From: Candidatus Poribacteria bacterium
GTDB taxonomy: Bacteria > Poribacteria > WGA-4E > PCPOR2b
Direction: 5' to 3'
Assembly (NCBI GenBank): GCA_965208325.1
Contig: OZ242326.1
Coordinates: forward strand, 1,024,001-1,088,000
DNA: 64,000 nucleotides
Positions 42,001 through 51,000 of the stretch are shown piece by piece. The position numbers were made by a program. Position 1 is the first letter of the stretch, and each line of letters starts with the position of its first letter.

Positions 42001-45000
42001 TTCAGAGGCTGGCGCTTCGTCCGCCGAATCTGCCTGAACGTCTTTTGCGCCGTCTTCCGATGTAGTGCCTTCGGCTTCCGCCTCTATTTGTACCTCTATT
42101 GTTTCTGACATTTCATCACCTCATATCAATGGATTCAATCACTAATGGCTCATCATACCGCCTTTTGAAGATGTTGACCGATAACATGCGCCGTAAATTT
42201 TACGATTGACACCACACGCGAGTATTCCATCCGCGTTGGTCCGATCACGCCTATGGTGCCGAGTAAATCGCCTTGAACGCTAAAAGTCGACTGGACGACA
42301 CTGCACATCTCCATTCCTTCACACCTATTTTCGCTGCCGATAAGCACCTGAATGTCAGGACTCTCTTTTTTTGGCGAGAGGAGGTCTGCTACTCGTTCTT
42401 TTTGCTCCAAAAAACGAAACAACGGTTCAATTTGTTCCACTTCCAAAAATTCAGGCTGGCCGAAAAAATTGGAAGTGCCGTTTAGATAAACGTGGATTTC
42501 CCTATCCAGCGAAAAGGTGCTGCGCGCCAGCGTTGCGACAGAATCAGACAGATCCTGATCGAAAACCGCTTTTAGATTTTTATGGCTTTGTGAAATTCGT
42601 TGTATCTCCCCCAAGGACAATCCCGCTAACTTTTCATTCAGAATTCGGCTGATTCGTTTGATATCAGCTTTGGATACGCTTTCACGGATGGAAATCACTT
42701 GATTCTTGACAAGCCCTGAATTCGTAATCAATACGACTACTACCCGCTGGGTATCGAGCGGAATGAGTTCCAATCGCCGTAGAATACCATCATGCAATTG
42801 AGGGCTTAAAGCAACTCCGATGTAATGAGAAATTTGAGATAAAATCTTAGAAGTCTGTTCGACGGTTTCAACAATATCGAGTTCCGATGAGTCGTACCAT
42901 TGTCGAATGAATCTACACTCCTCATCCGTTAACCGTTGAGTTGTCATCATATTGTCGACGTACACGCGATAGCCGAGTTCCGTTGGGATTCGCCCCGCCG
43001 ACGTATGCGGTTGCGTCAAGTAGCCATATTCTCCAAGCTGCGCCATCGTATTCCGAATAGTTGCCGGGCTCAATCTCATGTCACATTGCCGAGCAATCGT
43101 CCGGGAGCTGACAGGCTTCGCTGTCCGATTATAGCATGTAATAATCGCTTCAAGCACCTCGCGTTTTCGGGCATTCAGCACAGCGGTTGTCAATGGCGCC
43201 GCCCCCATCTCTCTTAATGTTAGCACTCTTTTCATAAGAGTGCTAAATCGGGTAAAGATACCATTTTACCCACCGATGTGTCAAGCCAAAAGGAAAAGAG
43301 TCACATGCCAGCGTCATCGACACGAACCCTTTCTCTCTGCACCTCGAAGACCAGTTTTAATTTGCGCCGCCTTACCGGCCACGCCCATATAAGTAACACT
43401 GCACCCTATCTGTATGCACACTCATCCATGGACTGCATCTGCGAATCTCTTCATTAACGAGAAGGAGTTTTGCTGTTCAATGACGTTTCCTGTCACAATA
43501 AAGTCCGCCCCGGCGTTTACCTTTGCAACAGCCAACTCCGGCGTCGTGATTCCTCCGCCCACTATGATAGGAATAGTAACGTGTTTGCGAACGGCGCCGA
43601 TTAATTCCTCCGGAACGGGTATTCTTGCGCCGCTGCCCGCCTCAAGATAGATGAACTTCATACCGAGATACTCCGCAGCAAGCGCGTGCGCCCACGCAAT
43701 GTCCAATTTATCACGCGGAAGCGGGGCAGTCCCGCTCATAACTTCAACCGACGTAGCAGTACCACCGTCAATAAGCATATACCCTGTGGATATCGCCTCT
43801 ATACCGCAACGGTGAATTAATGGCGCCGCTTTGACCTGCTCGCCGATTAGAAAATTGGCATTCCGGCCGCTGATTAGGCTTAGGTATAATATGGCATCGG
43901 CATGCTGGGATAGGTGCATAGAGTCCCCGGGGAACACAATGACCGGTAAAGACGTCTCGTCCTTCAAGGCTTTTGCAAACGGGTTGAGGTCATTTGTCAA
44001 GAGGCTGCTCCCCAGCAACAGTGCATCAACTCCTGCTTCTTCCGCTTGATGCGCAACATGCATGCAATCGGCGATGGAATGCCGATCGGGGTCTAAGAGC
44101 ACAATGTAGCCTGCTCTGCATCTTGACAGAACATTCAGTAGGTAATCTAAGGTTGAACCTGATTTCATGGGGTTAGGTGTTTGGAGATTCGTTTTTTCAA
44201 ATCTGCTCTCGCCGCCATTGAATCTGATGGAATTAGACCGATTGCGTCAGAGCCATCCGGAGCGTATGAGATGTCTCAATTCCAGTAGCAAGCGTGGTTG
44301 GTGCATCAACACCGTCTTAAAAATCTGCATCATGTTGACCTTGTCAGGCGGCATCTTTGACACCACCTCCGCACACTTGTCAAAAAGGTCATCACTGAAC
44401 TTAAGCACACCATCTCGTATTCGGCAGACGTGCTTGAAATTACTGCCAATTTCCTTGTCCCACCGGTTTTGATAAGCGCTCAAAATCTTTGCGGACACAT
44501 CTCCAATTCGGATAGCATCGACCGCCGCGTCGGCGGCAAATTGTCCCGAATACATTGCGTTTGCGACCCCGCCGCCAGAAATAGGATCGCTATGGTGCGC
44601 CGCATCGCCAATCAGCATAATCCCGTCACCCACAATCTTGGGCAGACTATTCCCTACCGGCACACAACCGACGACCTGCGCAAGAATTTTTCCGTGCGGA
44701 AATTTTCGTTTGACGAATTCATTTAGATAGTCGATGGCGAGCTTCCCGCCCTTACCGGAGATTGTCCCGCCGATTCCGATGCCGACATTCGCAATGTCAT
44801 CTCCTTTAGGGAAAACCCAGGCATAGCCTCGCGGCGCAAGCTCGCGGCCAAGGTAAAAATCGCAGAAATCGGGGATAATGCCAATCTTAGAAATTAAGTA
44901 TTGGGCGCAAATGTCCACGTCACGTAAATCGTGTGTGCTATCTATGCCCGCCCACCGCGCCACCTGCGATTCAATTCCGTCGGCAGCGATGACGACCTTC

Positions 45001-48000: not shown

Positions 48001-51000
48001 CGAACTGGACGAATGGAATAAACGACGCCAAGTAAGATTGAAAGCCCAATTAGGACGAGATAGCTCAGGTTGTTTCTAAACCAGAAACCTGCCCAAACCA
48101 CGGCAGAAACAAGTAACATGCCGGCTTCCAACACAAGCAGCCGAATTTTCACATGTCCCTGCGCAACGAGAAAGAGTTTGTTGTTTGCTGCGTCTGTTTC
48201 TTTGTCACAGATTTGGTTGATGATGTAAATTGCCCCCATCAGCATAGAGTACAAACAGAGGGTACCCAGCAACTCATGATTGGGACGAACCAAAATATTA
48301 AATTTCGGCAGAAATGCGAGCTGTACTGCCCTCAATCCTTCGTATGTAGAAGTGTCAGACAATGCGCCATAATAGCCAAGCAACACAAGGGTCCAAACCG
48401 GCAGCAGCAGTGTTGGACGAAGGACAATTATATAATCCAAAAGATGTATCGCGCTGCGTTTCGTGGGTTGCAGCTTAGTTTGAGTGAGTGAATTTCCCAT
48501 TCCAAATCCGACTGCGCCTGAGATGCCGCGTCCACAATACATGGGAATTCTTGCGTATGACGCATCACGCGTAACGTAGTACGTTTAAGTATGCAAAACG
48601 ATTGATGAGTCTGTTTTTTAAGCACTCAAATTTAAAACGGCGTCTTCCCAATAAACCGAGTTTTCCCTGGAAAGATCGAAAGGTGTCACATCGATAGATT
48701 CCCATCCGCGGGAAACGGTACATCGCTTCAAGTGATAACTCCCGGACTGGATCCAAGCTAAACGCGATGCGGTATCCGGCAGATTTCACCAAATCCAATG
48801 TCTCCGCATTCACACTTCCATACGGATATGCGAAACTCCGAACGGGGCGGCCTAGAATATGCTCGAGCCGGTATTTAGATTCCTCGAGCTCTGCGTTTGC
48901 CTCGACCCGGCTGCAATGCGTTAAGAAGCGGTGGTGCAATCCGTGGGACCCAAACCCAATCCCATTTTGGACGAGTGATTTAATTTGGCTTTCGCTTAGA
49001 TGTTTAGGGCGTTTTAAACTGCGCTGCACATCCCACTCATTTAACCGTCCAATGTATGCCGCAATCATAAATACAGTTGCCGTTAAGCCGTATTTTTTCA
49101 GGATCGGGTAGGCGAAATTATAGAAGCTTTCATAGCCGTCATCGAAGGTAATGAGGATTGGATTACATGGCAATGCGGAATGAGATGAGATGAAATGAAT
49201 TAAGCTATCCGGGGTGATAGCGGTATACCCCTGCGCCGCAATAAATCGCATCTGGGACTCAAAAGTTTGCGGAGAAATAGAGTTTACCCCAAGTTCGAAT
49301 TCAACGTCCACTTGATGATAAGCCAGAACAGGAATACACCATTTCATTGGGAGGGGAGTTAGGTGTTTTGAAACTTTTCTACGACCCAGTCGATTCCTCA
49401 TTAATTCGGCGGCATTTATCTTCTAACTCAAGCACTCGCTGCTGTAGCCGGGAGAACTCTTGCAACATAGCGGGTAGTTTGCGGAGAGAGGCTTGGATAC
49501 GTAATTGCTGAGCGTGCGGCCGCGCCGGGAAGCCGGACACATAACTTCCCGCCGGTGTATCTTTTGTAACGGCGGATTTTGCAAAGATAATGTTCCCTTC
49601 GCTTATTGTGAGATGCCCTGCGACCCCTGATTGCCCCGCCATCGTTACCCTGTCTTTGAGTTCGCTGCTGCCTGCGATTCCTGATTGGGCAGCGATACAA
49701 CAATCTTCACCAATTATGACATTGTGAGCAACCTGCACCAGATTGTCGATTTTGGTGCCGCGCTTGATTATTGTCGCCCCATTCGTCATCGTAGCGCGGT
49801 CTATTGTCGAATTGGCGCCAATTTCGACATCGTCCTCAATGATTACTGTGCCAACCTGTGGAATCTTGTAGTACCGATCGCTGACAGCGGCAAAACCAAA
49901 TCCATCGCTGCCAATTACCGCTCTACTGTGAATAATGACACGATTTCCAACCTTGACCGCGTCGTAAATGGTGACACCGGGATAGAAGAGCACATCACTT
50001 CCAATCTCGACGTCATCTCCGATATACACGAATGGGTTGATAACCGCACCATTGCCAATTTTGACGTTATCGCCGACGACGGCAAAGGCTTGGATTGAAA
50101 CCTGCTCCCCAATCTGGGCGTTTTTGCCGATGATTGCAGTTTCATGGATGCCGTACTCGGTTTCCCGTTTTGGCCATGCAAACATCTCCATCACTTTGAC
50201 GAAAGCAAAATACGGATTATCAGCACGGATCGTCGGCTTGCCATTTTCTCCATTCGTCGGAATAAAGTCCTTGCCGATGATAACTGCGGAAGCCTGTGTG
50301 TGCTCTATTTCCCCCCGATACTTGGCGTTTGCGACAAAGGTAATTTCGTGCTCTTGCGCCTCCTTAATACCCGAAACGCCCCGAATTTCAATCTCGCCGT
50401 CGCCGCACAACTCTCCACCGATTAACTCACAGACTTCCTTCAACTTCTTTACCATCGTTCTCCGAGTTGACGATTGCTGCGCATCAACCCTGCTCCCTTA
50501 TGCTGCTCTTATTTGACGCCCGGCCGTCTGCGAACGCACAACCCGCCAATAGCCTACTCCACTGTACATTGAAAACCGTACATGTGCCAGCAGCTACTCA
50601 TCTTTATTGGCGCCAGTTGCTGCAGCGGGTTTTTCATCCTCAGCAGTGGCTTCTTGTTCGTATTCTGTATTCAATATCTCAATAATGTTATTCGTTAAAT
50701 CGTGCTTCGGGTCAACATACAGCGTCACAAGGCGTTTTTCGAGGATTATACTATAATTTTCGTTCGTACCAATCTGTTGAATTAACGCTTGAATCTCATT
50801 CAAAATGGGCTGGAACAGTTCCGTCTGTTTTTCCTGTAGCGCGCCTTGGCCGACCTCCAGCTCACGCTGAAACTCCTGCTTTTTCCGCAGAATGTCACCC
50901 TCTAAAGTCTGTGTGGCCGATTCATCAAGGAAAAGTTTTTGCTTGGTCAGACTGTCCTCCATGTCTACGATTTCTTCCCTAAGTGCTTCCAGTTTATCGC

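Follow-up and report, generated by a model that had tools for sequence, protein, structure and literature searches.

A gene cluster with the potential for archaeal-type isoprenoid glycerol ether lipids and a predicted selenocysteine geranylgeranyl reductase in a Poribacterium

The DNA analyzed is a 64-kb stretch (the window) of contig OZ242326.1, and all coordinates are positions within it. The host belongs to the Poribacteria and is a sponge-symbiont bacterium. ORF calling and searches of Pfam and NCBIfam identify six genes on the minus strand between 43422 and 48542 (Table 1). They encode a geranylgeranylglyceryl phosphate (GGGP) synthase, a geranylgeranyl reductase (GGR), a ferredoxin, a SpoU-type methyltransferase, and two UbiA-family prenyltransferases, UbiA-1 and UbiA-2. 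An initial annotation had placed the GGGP synthase, GGR, ferredoxin, and both UbiA genes in one minus-strand cluster, and all are at those positions.

Table 1. Genes and features of the cluster and its upstream neighbors.
Feature	Position	Strand	Evidence
GGGP synthase, group II, PcrB family, 248 aa	43422..44168	-	PF01884, TIGR01769, NF003198, PDB matches
GGR with in-frame UGA (predicted selenocysteine), 397 codons	44247..45440	-	3OZ2 alignment, TIGR02032
Hairpin 3' of the UGA, candidate bacterial SECIS	45263..45299	-	centroid fold, covariation
2x[4Fe-4S] ferredoxin, 72 aa	45440..45658	-	Fer4 families, two 4Fe-4S motifs
SpoU/RlmB-like RNA methyltransferase	45770..46591	-	PF00588
UbiA-1, digeranylgeranylglyceryl phosphate (DGGGP) synthase-like prenyltransferase, 282 aa	46598..47446	-	PF01040, NCBIfam DGGGP synthase models, 6M31
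UbiA-2, divergent UbiA-family prenyltransferase, acceptor unassigned, 355 aa	47475..48542	-	PF01040
Polysaccharide deacetylase and LpxD (context, upstream of UbiA-2)	48565..50455	-	ORFs, Pfam, NCBIfam

The cluster lies between bamA-skp-lpxD and hrcA-grpE-dnaK (Pfam, NCBIfam). The ORFs listed for lpxD and the deacetylase share 23 nt, and the gap from the deacetylase gene to UbiA-2 is 22 nt. LpxD also adjoins UbiA genes at other loci (L027, L029, L032, L033, L034, L054, L072, L078, L094). The 4.71-Mb contig is in one piece, GC content is 0.46-0.54 across the region without a break, the genes on both sides are bacterial, and the arrangement is seen again in other Poribacteria genomes; these observations rule out an assembly artefact. 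Archaeal enzymes are among the best characterized matches of the GGR, UbiA-1, and the GGGP synthase, as they would be if archaeal DNA had been misjoined to a bacterial genome or had arrived very recently from an archaeon. We give that explanation almost no credence, given the intact contig with its even composition and bacterial flanks, the presence of the genes in 17 of 18 sampled genera, and the separate clade (SH-aLRT 96) that the Poribacteria UbiA-1 proteins form beside, not within, the sampled euryarchaeal one.

The assignment of g00876 to the PcrB family as a GGGP synthase holds. The product scores 142.7 bits against PcrB (PF01884; cut-off 23.9) and exceeds the cut-offs of TIGR01769 (GGGP; 210.7 versus 161.55) and NF003198 (274.7 versus 247). 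In PDB searches it matches the group II structures of F. johnsoniae (4JEJ, E 1.5e-52) and M. thermautotrophicus (4MM1, 7.6e-50), whereas group I 2F6U and PcrB 4NAE reach only 1.1e-06 and 1.9e-04. The residues Y130, Y174, and E176 are the same in 9/9 Poribacteria sequences, as are the motifs EAGSG, VGGGI, and IVTG; the Tyr/Tyr/Glu triad and the phosphate-motif residues are named in available excerpts of a review (PMC9385802). The chain-length position is L, V, or I, as in C20 enzymes. Among 101 sampled Poribacteria genomes the gene is intact in all 82 carriers, at 54-100% identity. Bacillus PcrB, a heptaprenylglyceryl phosphate synthase, belongs to the same Pfam family and also makes a polyprenyl-glycerol phosphate ether in a bacterium. 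It is a group I enzyme, whereas the Poribacteria protein scores 24 bits against it and 182 for group II. The Bacillus pathway uses a C35 chain, forms no second ether, and receives glycerol-1-phosphate (G1P) from AraM. This chain length, single ether, and supply do not fit the Poribacteria cluster.

UbiA-1 scores 147.5 bits against UbiA (PF01040). Its best NCBIfam models describe DGGGP synthases or close relatives, and both scores are below cut-off (NF009523, 245.7 versus 269; NF009521, 231.7 versus 296); the next-best family is EboC, at 94. Residues 4-279 align over the full length of the M. jannaschii DGGGP synthase 6M31 (residues 10-279, E 5.7e-37), which bears out the description of g00881 as DGGGP synthase-like. 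NCBI and JGI annotation already calls the Poribacteria genes DGGGP synthase. N60, D64x3D68, Y/K, and KDxxDxxxD are kept; these catalytic motifs are common to the whole UbiA superfamily and thus do not fix the acceptor. The relatives of UbiA-1 are in FCB-type bacteria and Euryarchaeota, and a PcrB gene is also present in 5/5 FCB genomes tested. In the tree UbiA-1 groups with archaeal DGGGP synthases and FCB homologs (SH-aLRT 97), with the genome's own paralog outside, and the order of the Poribacteria, FCB, and euryarchaeal clades is not resolved. UbiA-2 is more weakly matched by PF01040 (64.5 bits) and by none of the NCBIfam models above cut-off. Asp-rich motifs are present in its translation, and the Atlas clusters closest to it come from WOR-3, Bacteroidota, and Zixiibacteriota. 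UbiA-2 is dispensable, since it occurs in only 27 of the 101 genomes and 10 of those copies have an in-frame stop; one match is a remnant.

The GGR reading frame contains a TGA at codon 46 (45305-45303), on the position of the active-site Cys. Translated with TGA as U, residues 5-392 align end to end with 3OZ2, the T. acidophilum digeranylgeranylglycerophospholipid reductase (E 3e-77), and U46 aligns with the Cys of PVRCGEG. The replaced residue is presumably the Cys near the flavin. The read-through product scores 230 bits against TIGR02032 (cut-off 158.8), in accord with its initial description as a (seleno)GGR, and retains the YxWxFP...GxG and GDAA motifs. Like UbiA-1 with 6M31, it matches its archaeal counterpart from end to end, whereas its score is under the lineage-specific NCBIfam equivalog cut-off (295 versus 780). 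The UGA is at the identical codon in 8/8 loci examined, and exactly one TGA is present in 24 of 31 GGR matches across the phylum; the codon is constant down to 69% protein identity without a further stop. Two Poribacteria genomes (G002, G100) and Melioribacteraceae have Cys there. Genes for tRNA-Sec, selA, selB, and selD are all in the genome. The centroid fold places a hairpin just 3' of the UGA, with an energy z-score of only -0.49. Two pairs of its apical stem co-vary in 8 aligned loci (UA4/CG3/UG1 and AU4/GC4), and the compensating changes coincide with changes in the encoded residues. An Rfam search with this hairpin gave no match, and we regard it as a candidate bacterial SECIS. On these features the active-site UGA is predicted to encode selenocysteine. 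This selenocysteine GGR is the least-described part of the cluster.

The small 2x[4Fe-4S] ferredoxin reported beside the GGR is indeed present. Its stop codon and the GGR start overlap by one base (TGATG), and the two genes are translationally coupled. Ferredoxin and GGR genes are also neighbors elsewhere in the Poribacteria and at 2 Melioribacteraceae loci. In G002, from one deep lineage of the phylum, the two are fused, with two CxxCxxCxxxCP motifs ahead of the FAD motif, and archaeal GGRs differ both in this respect and in having Cys for selenocysteine. A small ferredoxin gene also adjoins GGR in M. acetivorans, where it is the likely reductant, and saturation in E. coli required it (Isobe et al. 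2014, as cited in excerpts of PMC4244643 and, for the likely reductant, PMC9385802). The 72-aa protein is likely to be the electron donor of the Poribacteria GGR.

The genes for the GGGP synthase and UbiA-1 co-occur in exactly the same 82 of the 101 sampled genomes, whose close kin are not independent, and the same 19 have neither; these core genes mostly lie side by side, so joint absence can reflect one deletion or one assembly gap. They are less than 8 kb apart in 65 of the 82. The other 17 keep both genes, either more than 10 kb apart or on separate contigs: in 8 the genes share a contig, with 12.8 kb to 3.8 Mb between them, and in 9 they do not. Presence and absence can concern the whole block. 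Within genus g2, a 3.3-kb UbiA-1-ferredoxin-GGR-GGGP synthase block lies between POR and hrcA in G090; G015 has 37 nt in its place. GGR occurs in only 31 of the 101 genomes, 24 with the UGA. The capacity for diethers put forward initially is upheld by family tests, residues, co-occurrence, the block, a type I GGPP synthase-like gene, and the selenocysteine machinery; given the limited spread of GGR, its qualifier "saturated" applies to this lineage, not to the phylum. Loss of GGR from most genomes, deletion of the block from a whole genus, and the decay of UbiA-2 could also mean that this lineage inherited the genes as mere relics, with their expression or activity since lost, and that the GGR UGA is a plain nonsense mutation. 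This is very improbable in view of the intact GGGP synthase genes in every carrier and of UbiA-1 in 79/82 (3 matches have an in-frame stop). The fixed position of the UGA, the pairing kept in the hairpin while encoded residues change, and the complete selenocysteine gene set also argue against it.

The genome has the MEP pathway, with IspH present, from which precursors could come; HMG-CoA reductase was not found in the genome. As proposed initially, a GGPP synthase-like gene lies elsewhere; it is of type I, and the residue at position -5 relative to DDIED is W. It does not co-vary with the pathway, being present in 92/101 genomes, including all 19 without the pathway, and having no match at E<=1e-50 in 9 genomes with the pathway. 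The reported lack of G1P dehydrogenase (EgsA/AraM) and CDP-archaeol synthase (CarS) is corroborated: neither was found in a search of the genome, in which the G1P dehydrogenase model scores at most 80 bits. Five Fe-ADH_2 matches are one GldA-like protein, three iron alcohol dehydrogenases, and AroB. CdsA, PgsA, and a PIP/AIP synthase-like gene are present.

With CarS and G1P dehydrogenase missing, the cluster might make a minor isoprenoid glyceryl ether instead of a membrane-forming archaeol-type phospholipid, with UbiA-1 or UbiA-2 prenylating an acceptor other than GGGP. The product could be a further-modified monoether, as in the Bacillus pathway, or a lipid anchor or carrier in envelope assembly. 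The very short gaps behind bamA-skp-lpxD and the polysaccharide deacetylase gene would suit such a role, as would the polysaccharide pyruvyl transferase gene between the two UbiA genes of G002; UbiA enzymes also group by acceptor, and UbiA-1 is under the DGGGP synthase cut-offs. G090 and G002, however, lack the lpxD link, the GGGP synthase is a group II enzyme with a C20-type limiter position, and DGGGP synthase models score UbiA-1 at least 130 bits above any other family. UbiA-1 also falls in the archaeal and FCB clade apart from its paralog and shares the phyletic pattern of the GGGP synthase, whereas UbiA-2 does not. We consider a minor ether unlikely.

More probably, the cluster encodes the archaeal core-lipid pathway in a bacterial form, and the sequences are best read as a genetic potential to make (saturated) isoprenoid glycerol diethers. 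The MEP pathway and the GGPP synthase-like enzyme would supply GGPP. The group II GGGP synthase would join it to glycerol phosphate, either G1P of unassigned source or G3P, in the first ether bond, and UbiA-1, in the membrane, would add the second geranylgeranyl chain to give DGGGP. The flavoenzyme GGR, with selenocysteine where archaeal GGRs carry Cys, would then saturate the chains with electrons from the ferredoxin encoded just upstream. Because CarS is missing, head groups may be added by bacterial CdsA, PgsA, and the inositol-phosphate lipid synthase-like enzyme. We infer every enzymatic step, and likewise chain length, stereochemistry, head groups, and any bulk-membrane role, from the observed gene identities, conserved residues, linkage, co-occurrence, and selenocysteine machinery. 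The missing G1P dehydrogenase and CarS, the UbiA-1 scores under cut-off, the patchy GGR, and the non-covarying GGPP synthase-like gene speak against this pathway.

The proposed order of reactions is that of archaea (GGPP synthase, GGGP synthase, DGGGP synthase, GGR; excerpts of PMC4244643 and PMC9385802), which differ in having G1P dehydrogenase and CarS, whereas the Poribacterium is a bacterial host with lipid A genes. A closer parallel is found in Ca. Cloacimonetes and other FCB bacteria, for which the available parts of Villanueva et al. (2021, PMC7852524) describe a GGGP synthase, DGGGP synthase, and GGR set, also without G1P dehydrogenase and CarS. Shared features are a group II-type GGGP synthase, a DGGGP synthase-like UbiA, a GGR related to euryarchaeal ones, polyprenyl synthases, the MEP pathway, and bacterial CdsA and PgsA; in Cloacimonetes the two core genes are also co-localized. 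The Cloacimonetes GGGP and DGGGP synthases yielded ether lipids when expressed in E. coli. The Poribacteria are a different phylum, their UbiA-1 clade stands beside those of the FCB bacteria and Euryarchaeota, and their cluster follows bamA-skp-lpxD and includes the ferredoxin and a GGR that is a predicted selenoprotein. On this reading another bacterial phylum would join the known exception to the "lipid divide".

The SpoU/RlmB-like gene between UbiA-1 and the ferredoxin gene, absent from the initial annotation, scores 118.9 bits against PF00588 and 114.7 against TIGR00186, under the cut-off of 160.15. It is missing at four other loci (L026, L029, L034, L030) and occupies the equivalent place at L027, L028, L032, L033, L054, and L072. 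The methyltransferase is probably not part of the lipid pathway. In a separate count of a feature compared with Ca. Cloacimonetes, 4/4 Poribacteria loci and 0/48 other bacterial loci sampled were positive.

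The ORFs, protein families and minus-strand order confirm that the window carries a cluster of archaeal-type ether-lipid genes, as the initial annotation had claimed. On the minus strand between 39.4 and 53.6 kb of the window the ORFs are bamA, skp, lpxD, a polysaccharide deacetylase gene, a second and divergent UbiA prenyltransferase gene (UbiA2), a digeranylgeranylglyceryl-phosphate synthase (DGGGPS)-like UbiA gene (UbiA1), a SpoU-family methyltransferase gene, a 2x[4Fe-4S] ferredoxin gene, and the genes for geranylgeranyl reductase (GGR) and geranylgeranylglyceryl-phosphate synthase (GGGPS), followed by hrcA, grpE and dnaK.

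Features of the ether-lipid gene cluster in minus-strand order. Positions are those of the window; spacings to the next gene were computed from ORF coordinates.
Feature	Position	Strand	Spacing to next gene	Remark
lpxD		-	23 nt overlap	
Polysaccharide deacetylase		-	22 nt	
UbiA2	47475-48542	-	28 nt	second, divergent UbiA
UbiA1	46598-47446	-	6 nt	DGGGPS-like UbiA
SpoU/RlmB-like RNA methyltransferase	45770-46591	-	111 nt	
Ferredoxin		-	one base in common (TGATG)	reading frame overlaps that of GGR
GGR	44247-45440	-	78 nt	TGA at codon 46
GGGPS	43422-44168	-	186 nt	next gene is hrcA
Terminator-like hairpin	43324-43304	-		between GGGPS and hrcA
Promoter-like site	43284-43255	-		GGGPS-hrcA gap; TTGACA, 18 nt, TATCTT with TG

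The GC content of the cluster stretch is 0.46-0.54 with no step, and the window is part of one 4.71-Mb contig of a genome whose completeness is rated 95.6%. The DNA of the window, whole or in part, is present in 20 DNA-run rows from 14 studies, 16 of which rows are labelled sponge metagenome; no RNA run is listed as containing it. Across the main Poribacteria order the recurrent gene order is lpxD, (deacetylase), UbiA2, UbiA1, (SpoU), (ferredoxin-GGR), GGGPS, hrcA/grpE. The linkage to lpxD is absent in the genome G090 and in the deep-branching genome G002, and is therefore not a fixed feature. A scan for operon signals found 22 promoter-like sites (17.1 in shuffles) and 12 terminator-like sites (14.0 in shuffles), neither above chance. 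With that reservation, the hairpin and the promoter-like site between GGGPS and hrcA (window 43255-43324) would close the lipid unit ahead of hrcA. At least six further Poribacteria loci have the SpoU/RlmB-like gene in the same position, and four lack it; its product has no evident connection to lipid synthesis. Two of the clusters contain insertion sequences: an IS66-family transposase gene lies between SpoU and GGR in the genome G020 (L027:7042-8445), and an IS200-like TnpA fragment with an IS605 OrfB/TnpB gene lies between lpxD and UbiA1 in G070 (L028:4330-5841).

The GGGPS scores above the curated cut-offs of PF01884 (PcrB; 142.7 vs 23.9), TIGR01769 (210.7 vs 161.55) and NF003198 (274.7 vs 247). 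It is nearer to group II enzymes, with 181.7 bits against F. johnsoniae 4JEJ, 172.9 against M. thermautotrophicus 4MM1 and 155.9 against 6NKE, than to the group I enzyme of A. fulgidus (2F6U, only 31.6 bits) or to PcrB (4NAE, only 24.2 bits). The conserved Tyr/Tyr/Glu triad and the TIM-barrel phosphate-binding motifs of GGGPS are named in a review (PMC9385802). In our alignment the M. thermautotrophicus chain has its Y, Y and E opposite Y130, Y174 and E176, and neither the triad nor the EAGSG, VGGGI and IVTG motifs vary among nine of nine Poribacteria GGGPS. The proposed chain-length limiter, a position with L, V or I in Poribacteria, is L86 here, compared with I90 in FjGGGPS and V86 in MtGGGPS. 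The residues at this position match those of C20 enzymes, an indirect hint at the predicted transfer of a C20 chain to G1P. The residue following IVTG is N in four, T in four and S in one of the nine sequences, so the Thr of group II is not fixed. An Asn in place of this Thr was considered as a clue to stereochemistry and was dropped, as the position is variable within the phylum.

The initial annotation identified UbiA1 as the DGGGPS. In favor of this identity are the full-length match to a solved structure, its place in the DGGGPS clade and its co-occurrence with GGGPS; against it, UbiA1 falls below the NCBIfam DGGGPS cut-offs (NF009523, 245.7 against 269; NF009521, 231.7 against 296; NF009522, 175.4 against 353), models built from narrow archaeal groups. 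The protein is therefore named DGGGPS-like here. Its three top-scoring NCBIfam models all describe DGGGPS or enzymes close to it, and the next unrelated family scores 94, at least 130 bits lower. Its residues 4-279 align with 10-279 of 6M31, the DGGGPS of M. jannaschii (E 5.7e-37), an end-to-end match. The DGGGPS motifs listed in PMC9385802 are kept (N62, D66x3D70, Y125/K130 and D180/D183/D187) in columns that are invariant in 25 relatives; these motifs are not acceptor-specific. In the 50% library, 440 representatives match UbiA1 at E<=1e-30, and its homologues in Poribacteria are already annotated as DGGGP synthase by NCBI and JGI.

Relatives outside the phylum were sought in one genome per species with a six-sequence alignment as query, which returned 80 loci: four from Poribacteria, 28 from archaea (Euryarchaeota-type) and 48 from other bacteria. 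Most of the latter belong to Ignavibacteria, KSB1, Calditrichota, Latescibacterota, Kryptoniota, Bacteroidetes-labelled MAGs, WOR-3, Chlorobiota and Neomarinimicrobiota. In the flank (<=8 kb, often less), all four Poribacteria loci, 5/28 archaeal loci and 0/48 of the other bacterial loci have a GGGPS gene, and a PcrB gene is present elsewhere in five of five FCB-type genomes tested that carry a UbiA1 relative. One such match, at G103:C11:793805-794481 in a genome of Calditrichia (that of locus L063), consists of two pieces of a PcrB-family gene in different frames (profile 8-155 and 146-224), and could reflect a frameshift or a sequencing error.

A quick ML tree was calculated from 74 rows, that is 64 of the 80 loci plus 10 added rows; 16 short or partial loci were left out. 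Poribacteria, 23 euryarchaeal and 36 FCB-type rows group together (SH-aLRT 97), apart from MqnP and from a third DGGGPS-like paralogue of the genome analyzed here, which forms a long branch outside the DGGGPS clade. Within this group the Poribacteria form one clade (SH-aLRT 96), and euryarchaeal (92) and FCB (89) clades are likewise recovered. The best tree joins Poribacteria to Archaea (SH-aLRT 94). AU tests on 71 rows, without UbiA2 and the loci L077 and L113, reject none of the three groupings, with p 0.46 for Poribacteria+FCB and p 0.62 for FCB+Archaea. The sample includes no TACK archaea or Cloacimonadota. The DGGGPS-like gene of L077 (URVS01000200.1, labelled uncultured Mollicutes) nests within Methanobacteriaceae, with SH-aLRT 99 for its grouping with Methanosphaera and Methanobacteriaceae rows; this contig, of 3.6 kb, probably stems from an archaeon and was put in a bacterial bin.

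The phylum sample comprised 101 genomes of 18 genera, including the one analyzed here. GGGPS is present in 82/101, and UbiA1 in the same 82, three of them with an in-frame stop; both genes are absent from the same 19. GGR (E<=1e-40) is found in 31/101 and UbiA2 in 27/101 (16 intact, 10 with one stop and one remnant), and every genome bearing either falls within the 82. The two core genes, GGGPS and UbiA1, are kept in 17 of the 18 sampled genera. They lie within 8 kb of each other in 65 of the 82 genomes (median 2.2 kb). In the remaining 17 both genes are still kept, eight times on the same contig at 12.8 kb to 3.8 Mb and nine times on separate contigs. The 19 genomes without the pair comprise 12 of the 13 members of the genus g2, the single g3 member and, from g5 and g7, six fragmented genomes where a single assembly gap could hide both genes.

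Loss of the block in g2 is real. In G090 the locus (L026, G090:C1:2464000-2478000) reads POR, UbiA1, ferredoxin, GGR, GGGPS, hrcA. In G015 (L131, G015:C1:2558000-2568000) the POR beta gene is 237 nt from hrcA, and by BLASTN the 3.3-kb four-gene block of G090 is replaced by 37 nt. UbiA1, ferredoxin, GGR and GGGPS thus behave as one module. Because related genomes are not independent and adjacency eases joint loss, the strongest support comes from the genomes that keep both genes at unlinked sites, together with the block-wise indel. In a further genome, G084, the POR-hrcA site is filled by other DNA of about 2.2 kb.

The GGR exceeds the cut-off of PF22578 (GGR_cat; 89.2 vs 27) and, with its UGA read through, that of TIGR02032 (230 vs 158.8). 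Read in this way it also matches 3OZ2, the GGR of T. acidophilum, from end to end (E 3e-77), with U46 on the Cys of PVRCGEG. It scores 295 on the Thermoplasmatales GGR equivalog model, below the cut-off of 780, and so is not of that orthologue group. It is the sole GGR_cat gene in the genome. The UGA stands at the identical codon (PVR*AEGI) in 8/8 loci examined from the main Poribacteria order, and the corresponding residue is Cys in two Poribacteria of deep-branching lineages and in two Melioribacteraceae. Of the 31 GGR matches of the phylum, 24 have a single TGA and are otherwise free of stops, down to 69% identity. A candidate SECIS hairpin lies 3' of the UGA, its apical stem beginning 13 nt after that codon. 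Two of its pairs change in a compensating manner across 8 loci (UA4/CG3/UG1 and AU4/GC4) even though the encoded residues differ; its energy is ordinary (z -0.49) and it has no Rfam match. The genome encodes a tRNA-Sec with selA (588.6) and selB (373.9) adjacent, and a selD (376.8 vs 125) that carries an in-frame TGA of its own (G000:C1:4481278-4482201, minus strand). We regard the reading of the GGR codon as selenocysteine as well supported. Elsewhere in the genome, L129 (G000:C1:3513058-3514479, plus strand) encodes a CUAEP/CCAEP-tail radical SAM (seleno)protein, with 678.8 bits vs a cut-off of 500.

The ferredoxin is a likely partner of the GGR; other Poribacteria, and two loci of Melioribacteraceae, likewise have its gene ahead of GGR. 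In G002 the ferredoxin is fused N-terminally to a Cys-type GGR, and two CxxCxxCxxxCP motifs precede the FAD motif. For M. acetivorans, chain saturation in E. coli is reported to have required the ferredoxin gene adjacent to GGR (review PMC4244643). A literature search returned no paper linking selenocysteine with GGR, and "geranyl" is absent from the main text of a 2026 review on the selenoproteins of prokaryotes. Of the whole cluster, the selenocysteine GGR is the part least described so far, a variant for which we found no published description.

IspH was found in the genome and HMG-CoA reductase was not, a combination indicative of the MEP pathway. Of the two polyprenyl synthases, one is like long-chain enzymes; the other, of 346 aa, has archaeal IdsA and GGPP synthase as its best models. 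Both scores lie below the model cut-offs. This GGPPS-like protein carries Trp five positions ahead of an uninterrupted DDIED, which is the pattern of archaeal type-I GGPPS given in PMC9385802. The gene is present in 92/101 genomes, including all 19 without GGGPS, and so is not dedicated to the ether-lipid pathway; a coupling of the gene to the pathway was rejected, since it does not follow the pathway across the phylum.

Neither a G1P dehydrogenase (G1PDH; EgsA/AraM) nor a CDP-archaeol synthase (CarS) was found, again in agreement with the initial annotation. The five Fe-ADH_2 matches in this 95.6% complete genome are other enzymes (NF002022 <=80 bits vs 413), and PF01864 has 0 matches. The table of a 2016 survey likewise lists no G1PDH for Poribacteria (PMC5059525). 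The head-group candidates are one bacterial CdsA, a PgsA (125.5 vs 109.1) and a second PgsA/Cls-like protein. A CDP-alcohol phosphatidyltransferase at L039:1423-2046 (plus strand; G000:C1:4245493-4246116) scores 161 as Bacteroides-type PIP synthase, 147.9 as archaetidylinositol-phosphate synthase (<180) and 134.6 as PIP synthase (<170), all below cut-off, and is a head-group candidate for lipids of either type. Tes homologues are reported in 10/29 and Mss in 14/29 Poribacteria MAGs from the Black Sea (PMC11868695). Among the 10 long-frame radical-SAM proteins scanned here, of 20 matches, none was named Tes, and two unnamed ones had no match to the solved tetraether synthase; this is a weak test, and the genome may still encode a Tes homologue.

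GGGPS, DGGGPS, GGR, polyprenyl synthases and the MEP pathway have been described in Ca. Cloacimonetes (Villanueva et al. 2021, PMC7852524), in a study which showed that GGGP forms in vitro and that E. coli yields ether phospholipids. The same paper gives homologues in other FCB bacteria, in "related candidate phyla" and in a Parcubacteria genome, and CarS and G1PDH are missing in Ca. Cloacimonetes as they are here. The cluster in Poribacteria is a system of this kind. Poribacteria are not named in the main text of that paper; its supplements, with the "related candidate phyla", may name them. Our literature search found no on-topic paper joining Poribacteria with GGGPS, DGGGPS or ether lipids. 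The Poribacteria passages located in PMC2478661, PMC7203096, PMC11868695 and PMC5059525 concern other matters or show no G1PDH, and one supplementary file of Coleman 2019 (PMC6431249) does not contain the name. The window adds the three core enzymes and the ferredoxin in one cluster, the phylum-level counts, the within-genus four-gene indel, the ferredoxin-GGR fusion and the type-I GGPPS signature.

The capacity for saturated diethers proposed in the initial annotation is supported as genetic potential. The most likely mechanism, which we consider probable, is that GGPP would be converted to GGGP and then to DGGGP, that saturation would depend on the ferredoxin and the selenocysteine GGR, and that bacterial enzymes would supply the head groups, with a glycerol phosphate that may be G1P or G3P. 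A bolder proposal seems rather unlikely to us: that fully saturated archaeol-type diethers are a regular constituent of the poribacterial envelope, saturated in a selenium-dependent manner by a selenoprotein family not previously described and the first selenoenzyme of membrane-lipid synthesis, from genes co-transcribed with those of outer-membrane biogenesis. If it were true, bacteria would be the source of part of the isoprenoid ether lipids that are measured in sponges as "archaeal". Sponges harbor Poribacteria in abundance, and isoprenoid glycerol ethers serve as archaeal biomarkers; a bacterial source of these ethers would alter the interpretation of such biomarkers. Archaeal-type ether-lipid genes in bacteria bear on how absolute the "lipid divide" is and on the stability of mixed membranes in nature. 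Poribacteria would add a phylum beyond the FCB group that keeps the two core genes phylum-wide and together, and G090, with the block, and G015, with its clean deletion, form a natural within-genus contrast for tying the genes to lipids.

UbiA2 is a weak member of the UbiA family with intact Asp-rich motifs, and its nearest Atlas clusters are from WOR-3, Bacteroidota and Zixiibacteriota. The single in-frame stop present in 10 of its 27 matches is TAA in five from g7, and the remnant in G089 is 110 residues long; the gene seems to be decaying in the phylum (examples are G054:C21:10743-11669 and G068:C1:3510391-3511317). In three deep-branching genomes the UbiA2 open frame is 693-732 aa, which suggests fusion to another domain. 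The third DGGGPS-like UbiA of the genome, of 306 aa (L035:5081-5998, plus strand, in G000:C1:1146000-1157000), lies about 63 kb past the window end and scores 130.7 bits with NF009523 and 107.1 with NF009521. It has a Zn-dependent alcohol dehydrogenase gene on one side and that of a squalene-hopene-cyclase-like protein of 557 aa on the other; next comes a GT2 glycosyltransferase gene, with a methyltransferase gene beyond on the opposite strand. By its gene content this locus is a separate, terpenoid-looking cluster.
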